From: a virus
Taxonomy: Duplodnaviria; Heunggongvirae; Uroviricota; Caudoviricetes
DNA length: 34,413 nt
Virus record (IMG/VR): IMGVR_UViG_2645728091_000016
Direction: 5' to 3' (one strand)
The notes below the pieces were generated by a model. The model saw only the letters and a list, made by a program, of their open reading frames with translations, did not search any database and was not told where the DNA came from. Shown here piece by piece: positions 2,708 to 25,137 of this stretch. The position numbers and the translations under genes were made by a program. Numbering within the stretch: the stretch's first letter is position 1; each line of letters opens with the position of its first letter.

Positions 2708-3561
2708 GCACCATCCTGAAATGGGCGGGTAATAAAACCGCCATTATGTCCGAACTGAAAAAATACCTTCCTGCTGGCCCGCGACTGGTTGAACCTTTCG
2801 CGGGTTCTTGTGCTGTGATGATGGCGACGGATTACCCCAGCTATCTGGTTGCGGATATTAATCCTGATTTAATCAACCTCTATAAAAAGATTGCCGCTGA
2901 TTGCGAAGCGTTTATATCTCGTGCCAAAGTTTTATTTGAGGAAGCAAACAGTGAGCTGGCTTATTACAACATAAGACAGGAGTTTAATTACTCAACTGAA
3001 ATTACTGATTTCATGAAGGCGATATATTTCCTATATCTCAATCGTCACGGTTACCGTGGTTTATGTCGCTATAACAAGAGCGGGTATTTCAACATTCCCT
3101 ACGGTAATTATAAAAATCCGTATTTCCCTGAAAAAGAAATTCGCGCATTTGCAGAGAAAGCCCAGCGGGCAACGTTTATCTGCGCGAGCTTTGATGAAAC
3201 GCTGGCGATGCTGCAGGTGGGGGATGTGGTGTATTGCGATCCGCCGTATGACGGTACGTTTTCCGGCTATCACACTGATGGTTTCACTGAAGATGACCAG
3301 TATCACCTGGCATCCATTCTTGAACATCGGTCATCAGAAGGACATCCGGTCATTGTTTCTAACAATGACACATCCCTGATTCGTTCGCTGTATCGCAATT
3401 TTACTCACCACTATATCAAGGCAAAACGCAGCATCGGCGTGTCAGCTGGCGAGGGTAAATCTGCAACAGAAATCATTGCTGTTTCCGGGCCGAGCTGCTG
3501 GTTGGGATTTGATCCTTCGCGTGGCGTGGATAGTTCTGCCGTGTACAGAGTGTGTGTATGA
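2704..3561 (+). CDS. dam: Dam-family DNA adenine-N6 methyltransferase
   Basis: [15 protein letters not shown] (SAM-binding motif I) and DPPY (motif IV); ATGA overlaps with both neighbours. Confidence 0.85.
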
Positions 3562-5972
3562 GTCATGACGATATGAACAATTGCAGCGGCTTTAACGAGG
3601 CCGCCGCAGCATTTTCATGGAACGGCTCGAAAAAGGCCATTAACCCTTATCTGGACCCGGCGGAAGTTGCGCCGGAGTCTGCACTTTCAAACCTGATCAC
3701 TCTGTACGCTGCCGATAACGAGCAGGAACAACTGCGCCGCGAGGCACTGAGTGAGCAGGTCTGGGAGCGTTATTTCTTTAATGAATCCCGTGATCCTGTC
3801 CAGCGCGAAATGGAGCAGGATAAGCTCATTAGCCGGGCAAAGCTGGCGCATGAGCAGCAGCGTTTTAATCCGGACATGGTCATTCTGGCGGACGTAAACG
3901 CCCAGCCTTCCCATATCAGCAAGCCGCTGATGCAACGTATTGAATACTTCAGCAGCCTGGGCAGGCCAAAGGCTTATTCCCGCTATTTGCGTGAGACGAT
4001 TAAGCCATGTCTGGAGCGACTGGATTGTGTACGTGACAGTCAGCTATCTGTTTCTTTCCGTTTTATGGCAAGCCATCAAGGGCTGGAGGGTCTGCTGATC
4101 CTGCCTGAAATGAGCCAGGATCAGGTGAAACGCCTGTCCACCCTGGTAGCAGCGCATATGAGCATGTGTCTTGAGGACGCTTGTGGTGATTTGTATGCCA
4201 CCGATGACGTTAAGCCAGAAGAAATCCGCAAGACATGGGAAAAGGTGGCAGCGGAAACCCTGCGTCTGGATGTTATCCCGCCTGCGTTTGAGAAACTTCG
4301 TCGGAAAAGAAACCGCCGCAAACCAGTGCCCTATGAACTCATCCCGGGTTCGCTGGCGCGTATGTTGTGTGCCGACTGGTGGTATCGGAAATTATGGAAG
4401 ATGCGTTGCGAATGGCGGGAAGAGCAGTTGCGTGCTGTCTGCCTGGTCAGCAAAAAAGCATCCCCCTATGTCAGCTATGAAGCCGTGATGCATAAACGTG
4501 AGCAGCGCCGTAAGTCGCTGGAGTTTTTTCGTTCTCATGAACTGGTGAACGAAGACGGCGACACGCTGGATATGGAAGATGTGGTAAACGCCAGCAGCAG
4601 CAACCCGGCGCATCGCCGCAATGAGATGATGGCCTGTGTTAAAGGTCTGGAGCTTATCGCGGAAATGCGCAGTGACTGTGCCGTTTTCTACACTATCACC
4701 TGTCCGTCGCGTTTCCATTCCACGCTCAATAACGGCAGACCAAACCCGACCTGGACAAACGCGACGGTAAGACAAAGTAGCGATTATCTGGTCGGCATGT
4801 TTGCTGCATTTCGTAAGGCTATGCATAAAGCCGAGTTGCGCTGGTATGGCGTGCGGGTAGCTGAGCCGCATCATGACGGTACTGTGCACTGGCATCTCAT
4901 GTGTTTCATGCGTAAAAAAGACCGCCGCGCCATCACTGCATTACTGCGTAAGTTTGCCATCCGTGAAGACCGCGAGGAGCTGGGCAATAACACGGGACCA
5001 CGCTTTAAGTCTGAGCTGATAAACCCGCGCAAAGGTACGCCAACAAGCTATATCGCGAAATACATCAGTAAGAACATTGACGGGCGTGGTCTGGCTGGGG
5101 AGATCAGCAAGGAAACGGGTAAATCCCTGCGTGATAACGCTGAATACGTTAATGCCTGGGCGTCTCTGCATCGTGTTCAGCAATTCCGCTTCTTTGGCAT
5201 TCCGGGGCGTCAGGCTTACCGTGAACTGCGATTGCTGGCTGGTCAGGCGGCAAGGCAACAGGGTGACAAAAAAGCAGGTGCGCCGGTACTGGATAACCCG
5301 CGCCTTGATGCCATTCTGGCTGCTGCTGATGCTGGTTGTTTTGCCACCTATATCATGAAGCAGGGTGGCGTACTGGTTCCCCGTAAATATCACCTCATCA
5401 GAACCGCTTATGAAATCAACGAAGAGCCAACCGCTTATGGCGATCACGGTATTCGTATTTATGGCATCTGGTCACCCATTGCAGAGGGCAAGATCTGCAC
5501 TCATGCGGTGAAGTGGAAAATGGTTCGTAAGGCCGTTGACGTTCAGGAGGCGGCTGCCGACCAGGGCGCTTGCGCCCCTTGGACTCGTGGCAATAACTGT
5601 CCCCTTGCTGAAAATTTGAACCAACAGGAGAAAGATAAATCAGCTGATGGGGACTCCAGAACGGACATTACCAGCATGGATGACAAGGAGTTGCACGATT
5701 ACCTGCACAGTATGAGCAAAAAAGAGCGCCGGGAACTGGCAGCAAGGTTACGCCTGGTGAAACCGAAACGGCGTAAAGACTACAAACAGCGAATTACAGA
5801 CCATCAGCGACTGCAGCTCGTGTATGAGCTGAAGTCCAGAGGATTTGATGGCAGCGAGAAAGAGGTCGATTTACTCCTTCGCGGAGGCAGTATTCCGTCA
5901 GGAGCAGGCCTGCGTATCTTCTATCGGAACCAGCGTTTGCAGGAAGATGATCAGTGGCGGAACCTGTATTAA
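3558..5972 (+). CDS. A: replication initiation endonuclease (P2 gpA-type rolling-circle initiator)
   Basis: About 805 aa from ATG 3558; HUH-type motif TVHWHLM; position after early operon. Confidence 0.9.
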
Positions 5973-6064
5973 TTCCGCGGGCTAACAATTCGTGCTCTTA
6001 ATAATACCAAGCATATCATGCTGATGAATGTAAAAAAACGTTTTACATCAGTAAGATTATTATA

Positions 6065-6084
6065 TACTGTAAATATAAACAGTG
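6065..6084 (+). promoter_or_regulatory. LexA (SOS) box TACTGTAAATATAAACAGTG
   Basis: CTGT-N8-ACAG with AT-rich spacer at 6067-6082, about 45 bp upstream of ATG 6126. Confidence 0.7.
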
Positions 6085-6125
6085 GTTATGCATACAGTGT
6101 TGCTTGTGGTGTCATAGGAGGAAAA

Positions 6126-6314
6126 ATGCAGGACTATTTTTTGGAGTCTTTGAAGCTCCAGCGCATTGATTTTTTTCTTAAGCTTGTAGCGGCTAGTGAG
6201 TGTAGTGATGAAGAGAAGGGGCTGGCTCTGCAGTGGGTTTCTGAATTGACTGATGAACTCATGGCAAAGATCAGAATCCACGAATACAGCCGCTCAATGG
6301 ATGTCATCAGTTGA
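6126..6314 (+). CDS. small SOS-controlled protein, possible Tum-type antirepressor module
   Basis: 62-aa ORF, ATG 6126 with GGAGG upstream; directly downstream of LexA box; position equals 186 tum. Confidence 0.45.
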   Translation: MQDYFLESLKLQRIDFFLKLVAASECSDEEKGLALQWVSELTDELMAKIRIHEYSRSMDVIS

Positions 6315-6324
6315 GGTGACTTTT

Positions 6325-6558
6325 ATGCGCATTGAAATAATGATCGATAAAGAGCAAAAAATTAGCCAGTCTACCCTGGACGCCCTTGAATCCGAGCTTT
6401 ACCGCAATCTGCGCCCCCTGTATCCCAAAGCGGTAATTCGTATCCGTAAAGGTAGCTCTAATGGTGTGGAACTGACCGGACTGCAACTGGACGAAGAAAG
6501 AAAACAAGTGATGAAAATTATGCAGAAGGTGTGGGAAGACGACAGCTGGCTGCATTAA
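6325..6558 (+). CDS. DinI-family protein
   Basis: MRIEIMIDK...LDALESEL...KIMQKVWEDDSWLH aligns along its length to E. coli DinI as recalled; ATG 6325 with GAGGTGA upstream. Confidence 0.8.
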   Translation: MRIEIMIDKEQKISQSTLDALESELYRNLRPLYPKAVIRIRKGSSNGVELTGLQLDEERKQVMKIMQKVWEDDSWLH

Positions 6559-6560
6559 GA

Positions 6561-6603
6561 AACGTTGCTGGCGTCTGAACTTGCTTCTGACGTCAGCAAC
6601 GTT
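6561..6603. terminator. strong stem-loop (15-bp stem with one G-U pair, 13-nt loop) between convergent DinI-like gene and orf177; putative bidirectional terminator
   Basis: AACGTTGCTGGCGTC...GACGTCAGCAACGTT inverted repeat seen directly; no clean U-tract. Confidence 0.35.
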
Positions 6604-6824
6604 GAACAACTAGTTTAGTGGGGCATTAGTCATGGGGTAAAATACAGTAACCATTATTTTCACTTCCGCTCAGATTTAACCGAACGTTAGTTTTGCTACG
6701 TATGATGGGCTGCAAATTACCTTTTGGGATTTGTGATAGATACGAAAATCCTATTAGATGCTTGTTAGACCGGAAGCGCCACTTCGAACGAAAAGTAATG
6801 GCCACTTATGCCGGTTTAAAAGCC

Positions 6825-7358
6825 TTAACCTTGTATAGTTATTTGAATATTTTCTTCATTAACACCAAAGTATAGGGCTAGCCCTGCTTTTGCCTCCTGA
6901 AGTGTTAACGGCTTAACTACATTTTCTTCTTCTTCTTCTTCGTACTCATCACCCGCTTGATCGACAATCGAATTAGTCGGGGTTAATTTGGGAAGAGCTT
7001 TAAATTCCAACTTGTCAGCCTCAATGCCAATGTCTTTGAGGTTGCGATAAGAAACGGGATTCCGATTGCCATCCCATTGTCCTGGGATGTCAATTTCAGC
7101 ATAAGAATTGATGTTTATGATCCAGCGTTTAGGGTTTTCTGGAGCCCTGCTTACTCCCGAGATTCGACCGATCATAAAAGCATGATGATGTTTTGCTTCT
7201 TGTGATCCCCAGTCCTTTCTCGAATTTTGTACACAAACTAAATATTCGTGCTTAGCTGCATGGCTGGCGTCAAGTCTCCATGCTTGGCTTCCCCCTGTGT
7301 TCAAAATCTCTGTTAAACCACGAGCAGTAAGTACAGTAATACAGTTGGTAGTAGCCAT
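6825..7358 (-). CDS. uncharacterised 177-aa accessory protein (orphan cargo gene; candidate anti-phage function)
   Basis: Clean ORF with ATG at 7358 and TAA stop; AT-rich; opposite strand to flanking phage genes; acidic EYEEEEEEN tract and HHH triplet; no family recognised by eye. Confidence 0.7.
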   Translation of the reverse strand: MATTNCITVLTARGLTEILNTGGSQAWRLDASHAAKHEYLVCVQNSRKDWGSQEAKHHHAFMIGRISGVSRAPENPKRWIININSYAEIDIPGQWDGNRNPVSYRNLKDIGIEADKLEFKALPKLTPTNSIVDQAGDEYEEEEEENVVKPLTLQEAKAGLALYFGVNEENIQITIQG

Positions 7359-7675
7359 TGAATTGTGACCCCGTCTTTTTTAGAAAAATACTGTTGATGA
7401 ATGTAGTTTACGTATTTTTTTATGGAGTAGTCAAGTTAGTATTATGCTCATTATTGGCTGTTTGTTGAGTGTTGTGAGTTGGTACTTTGTGTAGTACCTC
7501 TTGATTTATGATGATTAAATCTAAGTTATGACAAAGGGAGGCAGGGGGAACGCGCAGCGCAAGGTGGACAGGAGGCCATAAGGACTCACTTGAAGTAAGA
7601 AAAGATCGATAAAGCAACAATGCATGTCTATGCCGCATGAATTCGCATGATCGTTTGAGGATCGTTTTAGTTGAG

Positions 7676-7703
7676 GCCCGCCAGGAATGGCGGGCTTTTG
7701 TTT
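7676..7703 (+). terminator. rho-independent terminator GCCCGCC-AGGAAT-GGCGGGC followed by TTTTGTTT
   Basis: 7-bp GC stem plus T-tract read from sequence, inside the 480-bp non-coding stretch. Confidence 0.55.
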
Positions 7704-7744
7704 ATGTCATGCAAGTGCATGAAAACCACTACATAAAGCGGGCA

Positions 7745-7763
7745 GGCGTGGCGGGGATACGAG
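7745..7763. other. putative cos site (cohesive-end sequence) GGCGTGGCGGGGATACGAG
   Basis: First 13 nt match the 186 cohesive end as I recall it (GGCGTGGCGGGGAAAGCAT); GC-rich island in AT-rich DNA, upstream of the Q/P packaging genes. Confidence 0.45.
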
Positions 7764-7864
7764 CGCGCGAAATCCCTCTAATTTGAGCTAATCTGTTGAA
7801 AGTCATCCATTATTAATGATAAAAATTAGATGCGGATAATAAAAGTTAACAAAAGGTTGCAAAA

Positions 7865-8680
7865 TTGAACATTAATTTTGATGTTGTGATCAAGAGCGAT
7901 GATCATCAGGTTGATATGGATTATGGGTTGAAGACCCTGGCAGGAACTTCTAGAGTTGTTTCAACTATGGCTGAGGCAATTTTAAAAAAAGAGGTTTCGG
8001 AAAGAAGAACGAGTGTTAATGATATTAGGACACAGCTAAAGCAGAGTTTTAAAAGCTCTTATGGGCAAAATTTCTGTATTGAAGTTAATGATCCCGTTTT
8101 AAAAAGAAAATTAAAGAAAATGGGACACGATGTTTTTTGCGAAGTTATGTCCTATTATATTTCAGAGTCTATGTTTTTGGAGGCTAATAAATTAAGTTCG
8201 GCTGCTCAGGATGTTGTAAATGATCTTAATGATATAGAAGATAAATTGCTGGAGGTATTACGTCGAGGATTAATTGATATGCATAAAATAACTACAATGA
8301 GTAGTTTTAATGTCGAGCTAAATCATCACCCTCGTGGTAATAGGCAGCGAATTGCAACATTAACTCCGAAGACAGCTAAACATATTACAGAGACCGAAGA
8401 GGGTACTAGTGAATATCAGATTGATGTCATTTTTACTCGTTTTAATTCAATGACAGGTAACGGTCGGCTTATTGTAAGAAATGACGATAAAACAACCGCC
8501 TTTGGTCTTGCAAAAGGATTACGATTTGTTCCTTTGCACTTTAAAAAGAAAATTACTGAGAATCTTCATAAGAACAATGGATTAACTAAGCAAAATTGGC
8601 AATATGTAACGTTAACTGTACATGATTTAAAATTGGCTGGCGGGGAAGTAGTAAAATATTTTATTCATGAGATTTCATAG
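7865..8680 (+). CDS. uncharacterised soluble protein, gene A of a two-gene accessory operon (candidate defence sensor/enzyme)
   Basis: 271-aa ORF from TTG 7865 (AAGG 8 nt upstream); alternative in-frame starts GTG 7886 and ATG 7916; AT-rich; no motif recognised. Confidence 0.65.
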   Translation: MNINFDVVIKSDDHQVDMDYGLKTLAGTSRVVSTMAEAILKKEVSERRTSVNDIRTQLKQSFKSSYGQNFCIEVNDPVLKRKLKKMGHDVFCEVMSYYISESMFLEANKLSSAAQDVVNDLNDIEDKLLEVLRRGLIDMHKITTMSSFNVELNHHPRGNRQRIATLTPKTAKHITETEEGTSEYQIDVIFTRFNSMTGNGRLIVRNDDKTTAFGLAKGLRFVPLHFKKKITENLHKNNGLTKQNWQYVTLTVHDLKLAGGEVVKYFIHEIS

Positions 8681-9383
8681 AATGAAAAGAATAATATATA
8701 TTAGTTTTATCATTATAGTTGTAGTTATATCTATGTATTTTTACAACTTTAATACTGGAAAAGGGTTATCTAAAAGTACTGAGGTTTGGGGACAGTTCGG
8801 AGATTATTTGGGTGGGGTTGTTAATCCCATTCTTACTTTTTTATCAATTGTGTTATTGATTAAATCAATAGATTTACAACGTGATGCTAATGCAAGTATC
8901 ATTAATGAAAATAAGAGGCAGGAAAAGCTCGATTATCTGAAGAATTTTGAAATGCGATTTTATAGTTTGATCGACGCACAACGCACTGCATTCGAAAAGT
9001 TTACATTATTAAATGTTGATGGGGTAAATATAAAAGGAGTTGAAGCTGTAAATAAACTTGAGGATTTTATTTTTAACATGAAGAATGAAGGTAAGAGTAA
9101 GGAGGTTGTTTCTAAATTTATTACAGATTGCGATGTGTCTGAATCAATCTACTCTTCAGTACGGCGCTTTTATTTATTAGTCCGTCTCATAGATGAAAAG
9201 CTGGAACGTGAAGAGCGGGACGAATATTATGAGATACTGATTAATATGACTGATTTTCCGTTGGTTAGATTAATTGTTCTTGCATTATGTGTCTATGATT
9301 GGGATATAATAAAGTATATTGACTCTAGTTCTGTTTTAGCGAAGGATGAGTTGGTACAATATCGTGCATATTTTCAATTGTGA
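8667..9383 (+). CDS. uncharacterised membrane protein with two N-terminal TM helices plus about 170-aa soluble domain, gene B of the operon (candidate abortive-infection effector)
   Basis: ATG 8667 (or in-frame ATG 8682) overlapping gene A stop; hydrophobic segments IIYISFIIIVVVISMYFYNF and VVNPILTFLSIVLLIKSI. Confidence 0.7.
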   Translation: MRFHRMKRIIYISFIIIVVVISMYFYNFNTGKGLSKSTEVWGQFGDYLGGVVNPILTFLSIVLLIKSIDLQRDANASIINENKRQEKLDYLKNFEMRFYSLIDAQRTAFEKFTLLNVDGVNIKGVEAVNKLEDFIFNMKNEGKSKEVVSKFITDCDVSESIYSSVRRFYLLVRLIDEKLEREERDEYYEILINMTDFPLVRLIVLALCVYDWDIIKYIDSSSVLAKDELVQYRAYFQL

Positions 9384-17361: not shown

Positions 17362-17755
17362 AGCGGTGCCTTATGTCCGCAATAACCCGGACAAACTGCA
17401 TCTGTTTGTGGATAACGGTTCGCTGGTTGCCACGGGGGCCAGCTCCATGTCGTGGGAGTACCGTTACACACTGAACGCGGTGATTGAGGATTTCAGCGGC
17501 GACCAGAATCTGCTGATGGCCCCGGTTTTGCTGTGGCTGAGGGATAACCAGCCCGATGCCATCAATAACCCGGCGTTACGGGAAAAGCTATTCACCTTTG
17601 AGGTGGATATTCTGCGCAACGATGTCTGTGATATCAGCCTGAACCTGCAACTGACGGAACGTGTGCTGGTCAGCACTGACGGCAGTGTGTCGAGCGTTGA
17701 AGCTATAGCGGAACCTGATGCACCTGAAGAAATGTGGACGGTGAAACGTGGCTGA
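17324..17755 (+). CDS. R: tail completion protein (P2 gpR)
   Basis: GTG 17324 with AGGAG 7 nt upstream; synteny. Confidence 0.75.
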   Translation: MNKPQSLRHALNKAVPYVRNNPDKLHLFVDNGSLVATGASSMSWEYRYTLNAVIEDFSGDQNLLMAPVLLWLRDNQPDAINNPALREKLFTFEVDILRNDVCDISLNLQLTERVLVSTDGSVSSVEAIAEPDAPEEMWTVKRG

Positions 17756-18194
17756 ACTGCAGAAGGTGGACGACTGGCTGAGTGCCTTGCTGGCGAATCT
17801 GGAACCAGCCTCGAGAAGCCGCATGATGCGCCAGCTGGCGCAGGAACTTCGCCGGACACAGCAGCAGAATATCAGGATGCAGCGCAACCCTGACGGCAGC
17901 AGCTATGAACCGCGACGGGTAACAGCACGCAGTAAAAAAGGCCGTATCAAACGTCAGATGTTTGCAAAGCTGCGCACCACAAAATACCTGAAAACTGCCG
18001 CCAGCACCGACTCTGCCAGCGTGCAGTTTGAAGGCAAGGTGCAGCGCATTGCCCGCGTTCACCATTACGGCCTGCGAGATCGCGTCAGTCGTAAGGGACC
18101 GGAGGTGCGTTACGCAGAGCGTCGCCTTCTGGGTGTAAATGATGATGTTGAGGCAATGACCCGCGACATGATTCTGCAATGGCTGGCGGGGTGA
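17748..18194 (+). CDS. S: tail completion/virion morphogenesis protein (P2 gpS)
   Basis: GTG 17748 overlapping R stop; synteny. Confidence 0.75.
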   Translation: MAELQKVDDWLSALLANLEPASRSRMMRQLAQELRRTQQQNIRMQRNPDGSSYEPRRVTARSKKGRIKRQMFAKLRTTKYLKTAASTDSASVQFEGKVQRIARVHHYGLRDRVSRKGPEVRYAERRLLGVNDDVEAMTRDMILQWLAG

Positions 18195-18198
18195 TCTT

Positions 18199-18216
18199 TG
18201 TATCAGCACTGATACA
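18199..18216 (+). promoter_or_regulatory. Ogr/Delta activator site TGT-N12-ACA (perfect palindrome TTGTATCAGCACTGATACAA) of the V-operon late promoter
   Basis: Read from sequence in the S-V intergenic region upstream of V ATG 18263. Confidence 0.65.
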
Positions 18217-18262
18217 AGTTGCAGCACTGTCGCCTTTCTTCCCCTGATGGCAACCTTTCCCT

Positions 18263-18841
18263 ATGAACGCACAATTAACCGAAATCATGCGCCTTATCAC
18301 CAACCTGATCCGCACAGGGGTAGTCACCGAAGTGGACAGGGAAAACTGGCTTTGCCGGGTGAAAACGGGCGAGCTTGAAACCAACTGGATCAGCTGGCTG
18401 ACGCTGCGTGCCGGGAATGCCCGTACATGGTGGCGACCATCGGAAGGTGAGCAGGTGGTGCTGCTGAGTCTGGGCGGCAGTCTGGAAACCGCCTTTGCGC
18501 TGCCCGCTGTCTATTCGAATCAGTTCGCACCACCGTCGACGTCGGCGGACGCCTGCGTGACAGAACATCCTGACGGTGGCTGGTTTGAATACGAACCCGC
18601 CACCGGGCGCTGGTATGTCAGGGGCATCAAATCAATGGTCATTGAGGCTGCTGACAACATCACCATGAAAACCAGTGAGTTTGTACTGGAGGCTGACCGC
18701 ACGCGCATTAACAGCGAAGTGGTGATCAATGGTGGCGTTACCCAAGGCGGCGGAGCGATGAGTTCTAACGGGATCGTGGTTGATGCGCATCAGCATACTG
18801 GCGTCCTGAAAGGCGGCGATACAACCGGAGGCCCGGTATGA
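18263..18841 (+). CDS. V: baseplate spike/assembly protein (P2 gpV)
   Basis: 192 aa; synteny. Confidence 0.85.
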   Translation: MNAQLTEIMRLITNLIRTGVVTEVDRENWLCRVKTGELETNWISWLTLRAGNARTWWRPSEGEQVVLLSLGGSLETAFALPAVYSNQFAPPSTSADACVTEHPDGGWFEYEPATGRWYVRGIKSMVIEAADNITMKTSEFVLEADRTRINSEVVINGGVTQGGGAMSSNGIVVDAHQHTGVLKGGDTTGGPV

Positions 18842-19197
18842 CGCTTTATAGCGGGATGAACAATACCAGCGGCAAAGTCATTACTGATATTGATCATCTG
18901 CGCCAGTCGGTGCGGGACATTCTGCTGACACCGCAGGGTAGCCGTATTGCCCGCCGGGAATATGGTTCCCTGCTGTCGGCACTGATAGATCAGCCACAAA
19001 ATCCGGCATTACGCCTGCAGGTCATGTCGGCAGTGTATGTGGCGCTGAGTCGCTGGGAGCCACGGTTGACGCTAGATTCCATTACCATCAACAGCAATTT
19101 TGACGGTTCAATGGTGGTGGAGCTGACCGGGCGGCGGAATAACGGTGTGCCTGTGTCCCTTTCCGTATCAACAGGAGCAGAGAATGGCAGTGATTGA
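18838..19197 (+). CDS. W: baseplate protein (P2 gpW)
   Basis: 119 aa; ATGA overlap with V; synteny. Confidence 0.85.
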   Translation: MTLYSGMNNTSGKVITDIDHLRQSVRDILLTPQGSRIARREYGSLLSALIDQPQNPALRLQVMSAVYVALSRWEPRLTLDSITINSNFDGSMVVELTGRRNNGVPVSLSVSTGAENGSD

Positions 19198-20092
19198 CCT
19201 TTCGCAGTTGCCTGCACCGCAGATTGTGGATGTGCCGGACTTTGAGACGCTGCTTGCCGAACGCAAGGCAGAATTTGTGGCGCTTCATCCGAAAGATGAG
19301 CAGGAAGCAGTGATCCGCACGCTGGAACTGGAATCTGAACCCGCCACTAAATTGTTGCAGGAGAACGCTTACCGTGAGTTGCTTCTGCGCCAGCGCATTA
19401 ACGAAGCCGCGCAGGCGGTGATGGTGGCTTACGCGATAGGCGGCGATCTTGACCAGCTCGCTGCCAACTACAACGTGACACGCCTGACGGTGACGCCTGC
19501 TGATAATGATGCTGTGCCGCCCGTTGCAGCTGTGATGGAAAGCGATGAAGCGTTGCGCCTGCGTGTGCCTGCAGCCTTTGAAGGGCTTTCTGTTGCGGGG
19601 CCAACTGCAGCTTATGAATTTCATGCCCGAAGCGCCGACGGTCGGGTGGCGGATGCCAGTGCAACCAGCCCGGCACCTGCAGAGGTGGTGCTGACTGTCC
19701 TTAGCCGCGAAGGCGATGGAACTGCAGAAAAAGACCTGCTGGACGTGGTGGAAAAAGCTCTGAACAGTGAGAACGTCCGCCCGGTGGCTGACCGTCTTAC
19801 GGTTCGCAGCGCAGAAATCATCCCGTATCGCGTGGATGCCACCATTTTTCTCTATCCTGGACCGGAAGCAGAGCCGGTAATGGCAGCGGCAAAAGCCAGC
19901 CTGCAGAAGTACATCGCCAGTCAGACGCGTCTTGGTCGGGATATTCGCCGTAGCGCCATCTTTGCCGCCCTGCATGTTGAGGGGGTGCAGCGTGTGGAGC
20001 TGGCTTCTCCTCTGGCGGATGTGGTCCTGAACAAAACACAGGCGGCATCATGTACGCAGTGGAGCGTAACCAACGGAGGAACGGATGAATAG
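19184..20092 (+). CDS. J: baseplate assembly protein (P2 gpJ)
   Basis: ATG 19184 with AGGAG upstream (track starts earlier at 19145); synteny. Confidence 0.85.
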   Translation: MAVIDLSQLPAPQIVDVPDFETLLAERKAEFVALHPKDEQEAVIRTLELESEPATKLLQENAYRELLLRQRINEAAQAVMVAYAIGGDLDQLAANYNVTRLTVTPADNDAVPPVAAVMESDEALRLRVPAAFEGLSVAGPTAAYEFHARSADGRVADASATSPAPAEVVLTVLSREGDGTAEKDLLDVVEKALNSENVRPVADRLTVRSAEIIPYRVDATIFLYPGPEAEPVMAAAKASLQKYIASQTRLGRDIRRSAIFAALHVEGVQRVELASPLADVVLNKTQAASCTQWSVTNGGTDE

Positions 20093-20690
20093 TCTGCTGC
20101 CACCGGGTTCAACACCACTGGAGCGCCGACTGGCGCAAACCTGCAGCGGGATTTCTGATCTGCAGGTGCCGCTTCGTGACTTGTGGAATCCGGCAACCTG
20201 TCCGGTCAGTTTCCTGCCTTATCTCGCCTGGGCGTTCTCTGTGGATCGCTGGGACGAGGGCTGGACAGAAAGCGTCAAGCGCCAGGTGGTGAAGGATGCT
20301 TTTTATATTCATCAGCATAAAGGGACCACCAGTGCCGTGCGGCGGGTGGTGGAGCCGTTCGGATTCCTGATCCGCATTATTGAGTGGTGGCAGACCGGAG
20401 AAACACCGGGCACGTTTCGCCTGGATATCGGCGTGCAGGACCAGGGCATCACTGAAGATACCTATCTGGAACTTGAGCGACTGATAAGCGATGCCAAACC
20501 ATGTAGCCGCCACATGATCGGCATGTCCATCAATCTGCAGACCAGCGGCCCGCATTGGGTGGGAGCCGCCAGCTATCTTGGCGAAGAAATCACGATCTAT
20601 CCGTATATCAACGAAACGATTATTTCCGGTGGCACCGCGCATGAAGGCGGGGCGGTCCATGTTATTGACACAATGAGAGTGAATCCATGA
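20085..20690 (+). CDS. I: baseplate/tail protein (P2 gpI)
   Basis: 201 aa; synteny. Confidence 0.85.
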   Translation: MNSLLPPGSTPLERRLAQTCSGISDLQVPLRDLWNPATCPVSFLPYLAWAFSVDRWDEGWTESVKRQVVKDAFYIHQHKGTTSAVRRVVEPFGFLIRIIEWWQTGETPGTFRLDIGVQDQGITEDTYLELERLISDAKPCSRHMIGMSINLQTSGPHWVGAASYLGEEITIYPYINETIISGGTAHEGGAVHVIDTMRVNP

Positions 20691-22075
20691 GCACAAAATT
20701 TTATACCCTGCTGACGGATATTGGCGCGGCGAAACTTGCCAGCGCCGCCGCGCTCGGTGTGCCGCTAAAAATTACCCATATGGCGGTGGGCGATGGCAGT
20801 GGAGTATTGCCAACGCCGGACGCAAAGCAGACGGCACTGGTAAATGAGAAACGCCGGGCTGCGCTGAATATGCTTTATATCGACCCGCAGAACAGCAGCC
20901 AGATTATTGCCGAACAGGTGATCCCTGAAAACGAGGGCGGTTGGTGGATACGTGAAGTGGGCTTGTTTGATGAGTCTGGGGCATTGATTGCCGTGGGCAA
21001 CTGCCCGGAAAGCTATAAGCCGCAACTGGCTGAAGGTAGCGGGCGCACTCAGACCGTGCGCATGGTGCTGATTACCAGCAGCACGGACAATATCATCCTG
21101 AAAATCGACCCTGCTGTAGTGCTGGCAACCCGCAAGTATGTGGATGACAAGGCACTGGAGCTGAAGGTGTACGCGGATGATCAGATGGCAAAACATCTTG
21201 CCGCACCGGACCCGCATTCACAGTACGCGCCAAAAGCCAGCCCGACATTTACCGGAACCCCCAAAGCGCCAACGCCAGCGGCGGGGAATAATACCACGCA
21301 GGTTGCGACCACTGCGTTTGTACAGGCGGCACTGACGGCCCTTATTAATGGTGCGCCAGCCACGCTGGACACGCTGAAAGAAATAGCCGCAGCCATTAAC
21401 AATGATCCGAATTTCAGTACCACCATTAACAATGCGCTGGCACTAAAAGCACCGTTGTCGAGTCCGGCACTCACCGGAACGCCAACAGCCCCCACGGCGG
21501 CGCAGTCGATCAACAATACACAGATTGCCACTACGGCTTTTGTGAAATCGGCGATTGCAGGAATGGTGGGTTCTGCACCTGCTGCACTGGATACACTGAA
21601 CGAACTGGCGGCGGCACTGGGGAATGATCCGAACTTTGCCACGACAATGCTTAATGCGCTGGCAGGTAAACAACCGCTGGACAATACGCTTACCAATTTG
21701 AGTGGAAAGGATGTAGCTGGTCTTCTCACATACCTTGGTTTGGGAGAAGCCAGATATGTCATTCAGCGAGGAGCTAATGCCAATGGTGCATGGATACGCT
21801 GGTCAGATGGTGCAATAGAAGTCTTTGGGACGGGTGGTTCTAATAATAATGGACTGGCTAAAGTCGTTTATCCTATTGTGCTTAAGCTTTCACGTTTTAT
21901 CAGCATAGCGGAAAGAATAGGAACGGATTATGGGGGCACATCTAATAACGTTCACGTTTCAATGATCGTGGATGACCAGGTCACTAATACCGGTTTTTAT
22001 GTCCGCTGCCAGATGTACGACGGAACACCATCAACAAGTGCTTTTTCTTGGAGGGTTTATTGTGCGCCTGTTTAA
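20687..22075 (+). CDS. H: tail fibre protein (P2 gpH-type); C-terminal about 113 aa lie inside the invertible segment
   Basis: 462 aa; internal tandem repeats; ATGA overlap with I. Confidence 0.9.
   Translation: MSTKFYTLLTDIGAAKLASAAALGVPLKITHMAVGDGSGVLPTPDAKQTALVNEKRRAALNMLYIDPQNSSQIIAEQVIPENEGGWWIREVGLFDESGALIAVGNCPESYKPQLAEGSGRTQTVRMVLITSSTDNIILKIDPAVVLATRKYVDDKALELKVYADDQMAKHLAAPDPHSQYAPKASPTFTGTPKAPTPAAGNNTTQVATTAFVQAALTALINGAPATLDTLKEIAAAINNDPNFSTTINNALALKAPLSSPALTGTPTAPTAAQSINNTQIATTAFVKSAIAGMVGSAPAALDTLNELAAALGNDPNFATTMLNALAGKQPLDNTLTNLSGKDVAGLLTYLGLGEARYVIQRGANANGAWIRWSDGAIEVFGTGGSNNNGLAKVVYPIVLKLSRFISIAERIGTDYGGTSNNVHVSMIVDDQVTNTGFYVRCQMYDGTPSTSAFSWRVYCAPV
21239..21682 (+). repeat. 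tandem 2 x 222-bp (74-aa) repeat inside the tail-fibre shaft
   Basis: Two protein repeats beginning SPTFTGTPKAPT... and SPALTGTPTAPT... with shared ...TTAFV...DTL.E.AAA...DPNF.TT..NALA motifs. Confidence 0.6.
21723..21748. other. left crossover site (hix/gix-like 26-bp site TTCTCACATACCTTGGTTTGGGAGAA) inside H
   Basis: About 19/26 match to hixL as recalled; inner half plus 9 further bp (21735-21755) repeated in inverted orientation at 23168-23188. Confidence 0.6.
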
Positions 22076-22259
22076 TCCTGTTACTTTGACTGAAGTAATC
22101 CCCGGTCTTCATGACGTGACCGGGGCTGTTGAATTACCAGAAGATAACTGGTTTTTTACTGCATCTGAAATCCCTGAAGGAATGGAAATATCTGTTAACG
22201 AGAAGGGCGAACCCATTCTGATTGAGATTAAACCATCTCAGGTGGAACTGGCCAGATAA
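22062..22259 (+). CDS. small protein downstream of the expressed fibre tip; putative tail-fibre assembly chaperone
   Basis: GTG 22062 with GGAGG 6 nt upstream; 65 aa; overlaps H stop; position equals tfa/gpG/U. Confidence 0.45.
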   Translation: MRLFNPVTLTEVIPGLHDVTGAVELPEDNWFFTASEIPEGMEISVNEKGEPILIEIKPSQVELAR

Positions 22260-22494
22260 CCCCCGGCGCGGTGCTGGTATCTGCTTCCATCACCGCGGCG
22301 ATATTACCAACATCATATTCAGTCATTTCCGGTTCCGGTGGTGCTATAAACTCTCCGTCAGAATAGAACCAACCGACGCCTGCATCTATATGATCAATAT
22401 TTATAATTTCGCAATTAGAGAATAAATCACCCTCTCCATCCCAGATAATAATATTTTTCACCACGCCATGTTCAATCAGAGCAAAATTACTCAT
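22228..22494 (-). CDS. small protein paired with the alternative fibre tip; putative tail-fibre assembly chaperone
   Basis: 88 aa; ATG overlaps stop of the alternative fibre cassette (ATGA). Confidence 0.5.
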   Translation of the reverse strand: MSNFALIEHGVVKNIIIWDGEGDLFSNCEIINIDHIDAGVGWFYSDGEFIAPPEPEMTEYDVGNIAAVMEADTSTAPGVIWPVPPEMV

Positions 22495-23186
22495 CAGGCA
22501 TACTCCTCAACAATAACTATTCCCGGGGCACCGTCACCTCCCGATTGAGCCTCACTTCCAGCAGGTGCGCAGGCTCCGCCTCCGCCAGCACCAAAGCCCT
22601 CAGCTTTACCACCACCACGTCCGCTGAATGATGAAGAACTTGCACCACCTATACCGCCTGAACCTAATGGTGTATCCCCCCCGGTACCACCTGCTACAGC
22701 TTTAACAGAGATAACCATTGCTCCTGGTGTTTTTGCACTACAGCGAAATGCTCTTAGTACAGTCCCGGACGATGTCGGACTGGCACCCCATGAAATACCC
22801 TGAATATATGATGTGTTTGCAGATGCTCCCCCCGCGCCACCGCCTGTACCACCAGGTGCAGTTATCATGGAACCGAAATAAGTTGTGCCACCTTCACTAC
22901 CTGAATTTCTTCCGGCTCCCCCCCCTTTACCTGCAGCACCGATAATAACGTTGACTTCGAAATCATTATCAACCTCGAAAAATGCTTCAATAAATGCGCC
23001 GCTCAATCCAGCTCCGGCTGTTGCCTGTTGATTTTCTGTTGTTTCAGGAACCCCACCGCCGCCGCCACCGCCACCAGAGGCAATGACCCTTATCTTTTTT
23101 GTCCCTGGTGTTGGGATATATTTTCCAGAGCTTTTAAAAATATTCGTGTTTAACAAACGACCAGAGAATCTGGCTTCTCCCAAACC
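22494..23186 (-). CDS. promoterless alternative tail-fibre C-terminal cassette (Gly-rich), expressed only after inversion fuses it to the constant part of H
   Basis: Open frame on minus strand beginning at the right crossover site with GLGEARF; contains SGGGGGGGGV run and many GGxGG repeats. Confidence 0.65.
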   Translation of the reverse strand, partial: GLGEARFSGRLLNTNIFKSSGKYIPTPGTKKIRVIASGGGGGGGGVPETTENQQATAGAGLSGAFIEAFFEVDNDFEVNVIIGAAGKGGGAGRNSGSEGGTTYFGSMITAPGGTGGGAGGASANTSYIQGISWGASPTSSGTVLRAFRCSAKTPGAMVISVKAVAGGTGGDTPLGSGGIGGASSSSFSGRGGGKAEGFGAGGGGACAPAGSEAQSGGDGAPGIVIVEEYA

Positions 23187-23200
23187 AACGTTTAAGAAAA
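23175..23200. other. right crossover site (hix/gix-like, inverted relative to left site)
   Basis: TTCTCCCAAACCAACGTTTAAGAAAA; inner half is the reverse complement of the left site inner half. Confidence 0.6.
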
Positions 23201-23255
23201 TGCAGAGGTAACAGCTAACTGGCATCATCTCCGGTTTTTATTCAGGGGGATGATC

Positions 23256-23822
23256 ATGCTTATTGGCTATGTACGCGTGTCAACAAATGACCAGAACACC
23301 GATTTGCAACGTAATGCACTGAACTGCGCGGGATGTGAGCAGATTTTTGAGGACAAAATCAGTGGCACTAAGTCCGACAGACCGGGGCTGAAAAAACTAC
23401 TCAGGACACTATCGGCAGGAGACACGCTGGTTGTCTGGAAGCTGGACAGGTTGGGGCGCAGTATGCGGCATCTTGTTACGCTGATAGAAGAGTTGCGCCA
23501 GCGTGGTGTGAATTTCAGAAGCCTGACTGACAGTATTGATACCAGTACCCCAATGGGCCGTTTCTTTTTTCATGTCATGGGTGCCCTGGCTGAAATGGAA
23601 CGCGAACTGATAGTTGAACGTACCAGGGCAGGGCTGGCTGCAGCTCGTGCCAAAGGCAGAGTAGGTGGACGCCGTCCTAAGTTGACCACCGAACAGTGGG
23701 CACAGATTGGGCGTTTACTCGAGGCCGGAGAATCAATACAGCGTATTGCACTGATTTTTGATGTAGGCGTTTCTACCATTTATAGAAAATTTCCGGCAAA
23801 TAAGATCAATGAATCCCCCTGA
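23256..23822 (+). CDS. serine-recombinase DNA invertase (Hin/Gin/Cin/Pin family)
   Basis: MLIGYVRVST...DQ...LVVWKLDRLGRS catalytic-domain motifs and C-terminal HTH; ATG 23256 after GGGGGA. Confidence 0.9.
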   Translation: MLIGYVRVSTNDQNTDLQRNALNCAGCEQIFEDKISGTKSDRPGLKKLLRTLSAGDTLVVWKLDRLGRSMRHLVTLIEELRQRGVNFRSLTDSIDTSTPMGRFFFHVMGALAEMERELIVERTRAGLAAARAKGRVGGRRPKLTTEQWAQIGRLLEAGESIQRIALIFDVGVSTIYRKFPANKINESP

Positions 23823-23871
23823 ATCAGCATTATGTTGATTATCCCTGCAAGCAGACAAATACCGTTATTTT

Positions 23872-23964: not shown

Positions 23965-25137
23965 ATGGCTCAGGATTACCACCACGGGGTGCGCGTTGTT
24001 GAAGTCAACGAAGGCACCCGATCTATTACCACGGTGAGCACCGCCATCGTGGGTATGGTCTGCACGGGCGATGATGCCGATGCAAAAATGTTTCCTCTTA
24101 ATAAACCCGTGCTGATCACTGATGTGCTGACTGCCAGCGGTAAAGCGGGTGAGTCAGGTACTCTGGCCCGTTCGCTGGATGCCATCGCTGACCAGGCAAA
24201 ACCCGTGACCATTGTTGTGCGTGTGCCGCAGGGTGAAACGGAAGACGAAACCACGACCAATATCATCGGCGCAGTGACTGCTGAAGGTAAAAAAACAGGT
24301 ATGAAAGCCCTGTTATCTGCCCAGTCACAGCTCGGCGTTAAACCGCGCATTCTCGGCGTGCCAGGCCACGACACCAAGGCGGTAGCTACTGAGTTGCTGA
24401 GCGTGGCGCAAAGCCTGCGTGGATTTGCTTACCTGTCAGCGTATGGCTGCAAGACAGTGCAGGAGGCGATCACTTACCGCGAAAACTTCAGCCAGCGCGA
24501 AGGGATGCTGATCTGGCCTGACTTTACTGGCTGGGACACGGTGCTGAATGCCGAAGCAACGGCATATGCCACCGCCCGTGCGCTTGGTCTGCGCGCCAAA
24601 ATTGACGAGCAGACCGGATGGCACAAAAGCCTGTCCAACGTGGGCGTGAACGGTGTCACCGGAATTTCTGCAGATGTGTTCTGGGATCTGCAGAACCCGG
24701 CAACCGATGCAGGTCTGCTGAACCAGAACGACGTCACCACGCTTGTGCGTAAAGACGGTTTCCGCTTCTGGGGTTCCCGTTGCCTGAGTGATGACCCGCT
24801 CTTTGCCTTCGAAAACTACACCCGCACGGCGCAGGTGCTGATGGACACGATGGCAGAAGCACACATGTGGGCGGTGGATAAACCGCTTAACCCGTCGCTG
24901 GCCCGCGACATTATCGAAGGTATCCGCGCCAAAATGCGCAGCCTGGTCAGTCAGGGCTATCTCATTGGTGGTGATTGCTGGCTGGATGAGTCGGTGAACG
25001 ACAAAGACACGCTGAAAGCCGGAAAACTCACCATCGACTACGACTACACGCCAGTGCCGCCACTTGAAAACCTGATGCTGCGTCAGCGCATCACCGATCA
25101 GTACCTGGTGAATTTCGCCAGCCAGGTCAGCGCGTAA
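23965..25137 (+). CDS. FI: contractile tail sheath protein (P2 gpFI)
   Basis: 390 aa; GGAGG upstream; synteny. Confidence 0.9.

Follow-up and report, generated by a model that had tools for sequence, protein, structure and literature searches.

A Din-family inversion module that very probably gives a P2-like prophage two alternative tail-fibre tips

We argue that the P2-family prophage in IMG/VR record IMGVR_UViG_2645728091_000016 very probably carries a functional Din-family (Pin/Gin/Cin-type) inversion switch that gives it two alternative tail-fibre tips. The window, by which we mean the whole stretch of DNA analysed, is 34,413 nucleotides long. Within it the tail-fibre gene H runs into a 1.45-kb segment bounded by two inverted recombination sites. 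The segment holds the present tip of H and a silent glycine-rich (Gly-rich) tip on the opposite strand. Each tip is accompanied by a small open reading frame (ORF), of 65 and 88 amino acids (aa), and a serine invertase gene stands just outside. A functional switch is supported by a repeat and a site match far beyond chance, an invertase of the Pin type, a reading frame that is kept on inversion, and relatives in which the segment is inverted. The mechanism is an ordinary, long-known device, and inversion in P2-like prophages has already been published (PMC4272514). Only the contents of the cassettes are modestly new, namely a Pam3-like Gly-rich tip and two apparent minimal derivatives of tail-fibre assembly proteins.

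The recombination sites

21735-21755: left arm of a perfect 21-bp inverted repeat
23168-23188: right arm of the same repeat
21723-21748: left 26-bp site, TTCTCACATACC TT GGTTTGGGAGAA, within the H frame; core dinucleotide at 21735-21736; 1 mismatch to the Din consensus
23175-23200: right 26-bp site, TTCTCCCAAACC AA CGTTTAAGAAAA; core dinucleotide at 23187-23188; 2 mismatches to the consensus

The repeat had been picked out by a first-pass annotation of this DNA, and its coordinates are confirmed. The 21 bp lie in 33-nt arms that are 85% complementary. By our arithmetic the chance expectation of a perfect inverted repeat of this length in 34 kb is about 1e-4. The whole window and 100 shuffles of it were searched for the Din-type pattern TTCTCNNAAACCNNGGTTTNNGAGAA, allowing up to 3 mismatches. 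Exactly 2 sites match in the window and none in the 100 shuffles. The perfect identity of the repeat starts at the central dinucleotide of each site and runs inward. Productive religation requires that the core dinucleotides of the two sites match. The cores here, TT and AA, are identical once the sites are read in inverted orientation.

The two sites were compared with the Din-family sites listed in Table 3 of PMC3241671. The right site equals pixR of the e14 element at 25 of 26 bases, while the left site agrees with pixL and pixR at 22 of 26 each. The gix, cix and hix sites match more poorly than pix. Both 26-bp sites fit the Din-family (hix/gix/cix/pix) type of recombination site, and the hix/gix-like label of the first-pass annotation stands. 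A shufflon or other multiple-inversion system, such as Min of p15B or Rci, is ruled out because the whole window has only 2 sites.

The invertase and its candidate enhancer

23256-23822 (+): serine DNA invertase of the Pin/Gin/Cin type, 188 aa, transcribed away from the segment
23274-23341 (+): putative recombinational enhancer of the Fis-dependent kind, within the 5' part of the invertase gene

The invertase has an N-terminal resolvase domain (PF00239, E 2.9e-53) and a C-terminal HTH_7 domain (PF02796, E 6.4e-16), and it matches the DNA invertases of phrog_125 at E 1.5e-101. It aligns end to end with the structure of Mu Gin (3uj3, E 4e-92). The catalytic serine motif is intact (MLIGYVRVST; motif MLIGYVRVSTNDQ). 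Its protein identity is 74% with Gin, 76% with Cin and 84% with a protein annotated as PinE. These matches place it in the Gin/Cin/Pin group, and its position immediately outside the segment is as the first-pass annotation had it.

A Fis-bound enhancer within the invertase gene is likely. The phage P7 record annotates a putative Cin enhancer at nt 19-86 of cin, and the same stretch here is 81% identical. It contains two 15-mers of the form G-N13-C, at 23277-23291 and 23326-23340, whose positions in the gene are as in Mu gin. The nearer 15-mer and the right site are about 97 bp apart, centre to centre; for hin the reported figure is about 100 bp. We also compared 8 diverged invertase genes. Where two genes encode the same amino acid, their codons agree in 57% of pairwise comparisons over the enhancer stretch versus 41% downstream, and the best 23-codon window for synonymous identity starts at codon 9. 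The position, the geometry and the lower synonymous divergence all fit the known systems. This invertase and Gin share a Gln and an Arg-Leu pair in the helix-1 stretch of their DNA-binding domain. Gln151, Arg154 and Leu155 of Hin have been named as conserved among invertases (PMC3798978). We take the Gln and the Arg-Leu pair to be their putative counterparts.

Some points weigh against the enhancer. The evidence consists of homology to an annotation that is itself 'putative', two loose 15-mers and codon statistics. Such codon statistics could also come from constraints on the 5' ends of genes or from mosaic ancestry.

A perfect 12-bp inverted repeat, ATTCAGGGGGAT / ATCCCCCTGAAT, flanks the invertase ORF at 23240-23251 and 23813-23824. 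Repeats of this kind are at chance level (1 is expected per 5.5 kb) and several relatives retain the upstream arm only. We reject it as a meaningful element; its placement around the invertase is probably coincidental.

Gene H and its two tips

20687-22075 (+): gene H, 462 aa, spanning the left site
20687-21736 (+): constant part of H, an N-terminal collar/baseplate-attachment domain plus shaft, up to the crossover dinucleotide
21737-22075 (+): tip A of H, about 110 aa, YVIQRGANANGAWIRW..., in frame with H and now in the expressed orientation
22494-23186 (-): silent Gly-rich tip cassette, about 230 aa, on the opposite strand and adjoining the right site

Residues 1-150 of H match PF12571 (Phage_tail_fib, E 2e-63), and tail-fibre families of PHROG match as well. 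Tip A has a ratio of nonsynonymous to synonymous change (pN/pS) of about 0.2 against its relatives, which indicates purifying selection. Tips 58-59% identical to it are found in P2-like prophages of Kosakonia and Cronobacter. Its match to PF21882 (Gp53-like_C) is below threshold at E 0.014.

The silent cassette matches PF21722 (Gly_rich_2) at E 1e-7, with 32.6 bits against a cut-off of 24.3, and it also matches the C-terminal end of the tail fibres in phrog_6202. Its confident AlphaFold (AF2) model has a predicted local distance difference test score (pLDDT) of 89.6. In Foldseek this model matches the fibre of cyanophage Pam3 (7ypx, E 5.5e-8, template-modelling (TM) score 0.62). It also matches the second Pam3 entry 7yfw and the tail tip of mycobacteriophage Bxb1 (9d93), at E 1e-7 to 1e-8, and more weakly resembles the glycine-rich domains of ALK and LTK. 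The silent tip is thus modelled as a TNF-like/polyglycine domain like that of the Pam3 fibre.

The first-pass annotation had H crossing the left site and a promoterless Gly-rich cassette adjoining the right site on the other strand. Both hold, with the ORFs at 20687-22075 and 22494-23228 (-). The formal Gly-rich ORF crosses the right site and takes its ATG at 23228, outside the segment. A promoter and terminator scan, whose counts are at chance level, gave no sigma-70-like promoter upstream of the cassette on the minus strand.

If the segment is flipped in silico the frame is kept, and the result is a 580-aa H reading ...LTYLGLGEARFSGRLLN.... Proteins of 580 aa, the same length, are annotated by RefSeq in relatives that are in the flipped state. 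H reads LGLGEAR in either orientation because the Leu codon CTT consists of one outer-flank base plus the TT core. The claim that both orientations encode LGLGEAR therefore stands for H, with the small correction that the silent cassette as it lies reads VGLGEAR.

In the output of annotation pipelines the silent cassette figures as a protein in its own right, named 'phage tail protein' or 'glycine-rich domain-containing protein'. One example is WP_251124369.1, of 244 aa, whose first 14 residues read through the recombination site. This free-standing protein is probably an annotation artefact with no real product.

Related segments in both orientations

Homologous segments are found flipped within laboratory and clonal lineages. 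The first case is Escherichia coli UC4224. In this strain and its derivative UC4316 the homologous region, 96.7% identical to the window, is in the flipped state and a 580-aa H is annotated. UC4315, another laboratory mutant of UC4224, has the orientation of the window. UC4224 and UC4316 are identical to UC4315 over 7.7 kb save for the exact inversion of a 1457-bp interval bounded by the 21-bp repeats. The second case is a pair of clonal chicken isolates, DG341-1 and DG342-2. Their chromosomes are equal in length, and the sole difference in the region is a stretch of 1613 bp, inverted exactly, whose start is at the TT core. They carry a sister module that has tip A and the 65-aa ORF in common with the window. 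Across the 2.7-kb region the segments seen flipped are 96.7% and 95.8% identical to the window. In these relatives the inverted interval begins exactly at the TT of the left site. Since orientation differs between a strain and its engineered mutants, such segments may confuse variant calling.

The two orientations are about equally frequent in complete E. coli genomes. A query in the orientation of the window is covered to at least 80% in 12 records and the flipped query in 16. Both orientations are thus on record, and the refuting case named by the first-pass annotation, in which a single orientation is all that is ever detected, does not hold.

One further record has the same locus twice in opposite orientations. 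This is E. coli 214-4 (NZ_CP025840.1), with copies at 17572-20275 (our locus L023) and at record positions 5121210-5123913 (L022). The record repeats the region from potFGH through ybjM to the prophage at both of its ends, and the host genes are frameshifted in one copy. A tandem double lysogen is ruled out, because duplicated host genes with frameshifts at the ends of the record mark an untrimmed overlap of a circular assembly. The record suggests that the sequenced culture was mixed and held both orientations.

Proposed mechanism and alternatives

In the mechanism we propose, invertase dimers would bind the inverted sites at 21723-21748 and 23175-23200. Synapsis would probably take place on an enhancer, bound by Fis, in the 5' part of the invertase's own gene. 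Cleavage at the matching central TT/AA followed by strand rotation would then flip the 1.45-kb segment. The late operon would supply the constant part of H followed by tip A and the 65-aa ORF when the segment lies as in the window, and followed by the TNF-like/polyglycine tip and the 88-aa ORF when it is flipped. Each tip would travel with its own small accessory protein, and the virions released by a population of lysogens would be mixed, with two receptor specificities among them. The anatomy, the family relationships and the inversion of homologous segments at exactly these sites are shown directly. That the switch is active in this strain, that it depends on Fis and the enhancer, that the small ORFs act as chaperones and that host range is affected are what we infer.

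One can imagine that this is a fossil switch. Its sites and invertase gene would still be there, but the segment would no longer flip or the prophage would be cryptic, and the arrangement would be fixed and without present effect. Some related copies have in fact decayed. One has a frameshifted tip A, frameshifted small ORFs and a split H (NZ_CP148578.1, L015), and another has a stop codon in the Gly-rich cassette (NZ_CP168214.1, L017), so not every copy is functional. It must also be noted that inversion in the window's own strain is argued from relatives 96-99% identical to it, and not from reads of that strain. These points weigh against a switch that is active here. However, all five ORFs and both sites are intact in the window, as is the catalytic motif of the invertase. 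The gene set of the prophage, which lies beside ybjL and ybjM, is a complete one of the P2/186 type, from CI/CII through ogr-D. Segments 96.7% and 95.8% identical to this one have flipped within laboratory and clonal lineages. We consider a fossil quite unlikely.

Another scenario is that the switch serves the host, instead of the phage or besides it. A chimeric fibre made in the lysogen would block the adsorption of other phages, as is reported for StfE2 of e14. The P2/186 late structural operon is not expected to be expressed in a lysogen. This scenario gains from the presence of the same module (93.5% identical over the matched stretch) beside pinE in e14-like elements, and from the reported anti-phage role of the e14 P-segment product. 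There, inversion driven by PinQ yields StfE2 and a recombinase-activated inhibition of T2 adsorption (PMC12529663). However, H here lies in the late structural operon of an apparently intact prophage, and the scan found no sigma-70-like promoter for the silent cassette. A role in the host is very unlikely as the explanation of this locus.

That the orientations in the databases come from RecA-dependent recombination between short repeats, or from assembly artefacts, is hardly credible: the inversion endpoints can be resolved only to within the 15-21-bp repeats, and one record with two orientations (214-4) is an untrimmed overlap, but identity breaks off precisely at the core dinucleotide of a consensus Din site, both sites persist where the cassettes that they enclose have been exchanged, each of these invertible loci has an intact Pin-type invertase next to it, and independent finished assemblies agree. 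Repeats of 15-21 bp are in any case very poor substrates for RecA. A functional Din-family switch is the reading we retain.

The small ORFs paired with the tips

22062-22259 (+): 65-aa ORF, overlapping the stop codon of H
22228-22494 (-): 88-aa ORF, its start overlapping the stop of the Gly-rich cassette (ATGA); it converges on the 65-aa ORF

The first-pass annotation took these two convergent ORFs for chaperones cognate to the tips. Homology and conserved gene order support this, with the qualification that they resemble only the N-terminal domain of such proteins and fail the Caudo_TAP model. They would be atypical chaperones.

The family of the 65-aa ORF comprises 141 protein clusters, mostly 57-65 aa long, from the Enterobacterales genera Escherichia, Enterobacter, Salmonella, Cronobacter, Yersinia, Hafnia, Citrobacter and Kosakonia. 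The family is always found downstream of a tip-A-type end. Its profile matches the N-terminal 59 residues of a 128-aa Caudo_TAP protein, gene_1 of Cronobacter phage JK004, with a probability of 97.9%. That gene follows a cassette with an N-terminal motif like that of tip A; BLAST between the JK004 tip and tip A gave no significant match. The AF2 model of the 65-aa ORF is confident (pLDDT 89). It looks like a stand-alone N-terminal domain, of the fibre-binding type, of a tail-fibre assembly protein.

The 88-aa ORF is rare, with 5 clusters, and both of those named by organism are from E. coli. It is 53% identical to the first 63 residues of gp089 of phage Goslar, a 138-aa Caudo_TAP protein whose gene comes after that of a fibre with a homologous Gly-rich end. 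The 88-aa ORF thus resembles the N-terminal domain of an assembly protein cognate to Gly-rich tips.

In published structures the variable N-terminal domain of the chaperone binds the fibre and the conserved C-terminal helices trimerise. Since the small ORFs are homologous to chaperone N-termini only and lack the Caudo_TAP part, they look like derivatives that consist of the N-domain alone.

Several results weigh against a chaperone role. Neither small ORF matches Caudo_TAP (PF02413), even at E up to 10, whereas their full-length relatives Goslar gp089 and JK004 gene_1 do so at about E 1e-20. The model of the 65-aa ORF has no significant fold match in the PDB. The selection test (pN/pS) on the small ORFs is uninformative, with 1-3 substitutions per comparison. 

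No Pfam family is above threshold for either ORF, and in NCBIfam H, both small ORFs and the Gly-rich cassette are all without a match. Sequence searches of the PDB gave nothing meaningful for the Gly-rich cassette, the 88-aa ORF or the profile of the 65-aa family.

The pairing of tip and small ORF is kept in other genera. Invertible segments of Cronobacter have a tip-A-type end with its mini ORF. In a Kosakonia P2-like prophage (Logan contigs L020/L021, 2351-3686) a 61-aa member of the family is the sole gene between the sheath gene and H, whose end is of the tip-A type. It sits in the position of P2 gene G. There is no invertase at this locus, and one degenerate remnant of a recombination site is present.

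Current models (Mu Tfa, Pam3 gp25) assign trimerisation of the fibre to the helical Caudo_TAP domain. We tentatively suggest that the 65- and 88-aa ORFs form a minimal accessory class, stand-alone fibre-binding N-domains that work without this helical domain, though we think the idea somewhat more apt to fail than to hold. If the small ORFs suffice for folding of the tip, or remain attached to it as a component of the adhesin, the two-domain model of the chaperone would need an exception. Such very short derivatives of assembly proteins bear on how tips fold and would be useful for engineering the host range of phages or tailocins.

The module among relatives

Both 26-bp sites are retained in all the invertible relatives examined, and the cassettes between them vary. 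In Escherichia phage 500465-1 both cassettes are replaced by classical pairs of a tip and Tfa. Strain 20Y000092 retains the Gly-rich side alone and DG341-1 the tip A side alone. Tip and small ORF are swapped as units among these relatives, and their pairing is conserved across genera.

The same module is present in e14-like elements of other E. coli strains, beside pinE and with 93.5% identity over the matched stretch, and in another P2-like prophage. Identity is 98-99% for the cassette ORFs and about 92% for tip A. Copies lie at the following positions:

L009 (NZ_CP196312.1), 2992-4472: copy of the module
L014 (NZ_CP062811.1), 1492-2972: copy of the module
L017 (NZ_CP168214.1), 1501-2981: copy of the module

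One 1.45-kb module is therefore shared by P2-like and e14-like elements, although protein identity among their invertases is no more than 75-84% (in DNA, 73-82% to the invertase of the window). A nearly identical module beside diverged invertases implies that it moves as a unit between phage backbones. Din invertases cross-react, and the arrangement fits that.

Comparison with known systems

We class the predicted switch as a member of the Din family, closest in sequence to the P segment and Pin of e14 and closest in layout to the G segment and Gin of Mu. It adds nothing new on mechanism and is one more Pin-type invertible tail-fibre module. The likeness to e14 lies in the site sequences (pixR 25/26, pixL 22/26), in the 84% identity to PinE and in the identical type of module beside pinE. 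The setting differs, since here a myovirus prophage of the P2/186 type supplies the constant part of H while e14 has stfP/stfE. The P segment of K-12 has genes of the tfaP/tfaE type, whereas this one pairs tip A with the 65-aa ORF and the Gly-rich tip with the 88-aa ORF.

Mu has the same succession of a constant fibre part, a site, a tip with its accessory gene, a converging accessory gene with its tip, a second site and an outward invertase. Gin is 74% identical, and the enhancer-like region is at the same position in the gene, about 95-97 bp from the nearer site. However, the Mu segment is 3 kb long with full-length U/U' of about 175 aa, while this one is 1.45 kb with ORFs of 65 and 88 aa that lack Caudo_TAP. 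The core dinucleotide of gix is GA, compared with AA/TT here. The C segment of P1/P7 is related through its invertase (Cin, 76%), its annotated enhancer stretch (81%) and its 26-bp sites. It differs in that cin is transcribed toward the segment and cixL overlaps the 3' end of cin; the invertase here points away.

Among P2-like prophages, those of enteropathogenic E. coli (EPEC) E2348/69 have phase-variable invertible loci with alternative tail-fibre C-termini, and coexisting orientations were demonstrated by sequencing and PCR (Goldberg et al. 2014, PMC4272514). They too combine an invertase with inverted repeats, a likeness taken from the published description. One of the EPEC loci has three repeats and four variants, but the window has two sites. 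For Fels-2 a passage in PMC7953296 speaks of 'likely programmed inversion'. P2 itself is without a switch at this position, as the first-pass annotation remarked. In the P2 record the interval from the V-operon terminator to the F-operon promoter contains fun(Z) and lacks an invertase.

Pam3 is the best comparison for the silent tip. Its gp24 (7YPX/7YFW) has the same predicted fold, TNF-like plus glycine-rich, at a sequence identity of about 24%. The TNF-like and polyglycine unit is the proposed receptor-binding end of the Pam3 fibre, and the chaperone gp25 binds this tip via a 55-aa N-terminal beta-sandwich (PMC9608196). About the first 57 aa of the 88-aa ORF align to the N-terminus of the Goslar chaperone, a size similar to that gp25 domain. 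Unlike the 88-aa ORF, which mostly lacks it, gp25 adds a helical trimerisation domain of about 100 aa. Pam3 has no inversion switch.

The prophage

20085-20690: gene I (PF09684), upstream of H
start at 23965: sheath gene, downstream of the invertase

The prophage that makes up the window belongs to the P2 family, has the 186/Fels-2 type of regulation and adjoins the host genes ybjL and ybjM. Its genes include the CI repressor, CII, a Dam-type methylase and replication protein A. The late genes are in the P2-type order V, W, J, I, H ... FI, FII, E, T, U, D. The backbone is about 96% identical to peduoviruses of Klebsiella and Escherichia, and the flanks of the segment are 99.8% identical to phage 500465-1. 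Guanine plus cytosine content is 44-47% inside the invertible segment (21600-23250), while the upstream flank has 54-59% and the downstream side mostly 51-59%. Such a drop fits a foreign origin of the invertible module.

The P2-like variable region between replication gene A and the portal gene holds three cargo ORFs, at 6825-7358 (-), 7865-8680 (+) and 8667-9383 (+). None has a Pfam match above threshold, the nearest being DUF7946 at 25.3 bits against a cut-off of 27, and PADLOC matched nothing among the cargo ORFs at 6018-9383. These three ORFs could be an uncharacterised accessory or defence module.

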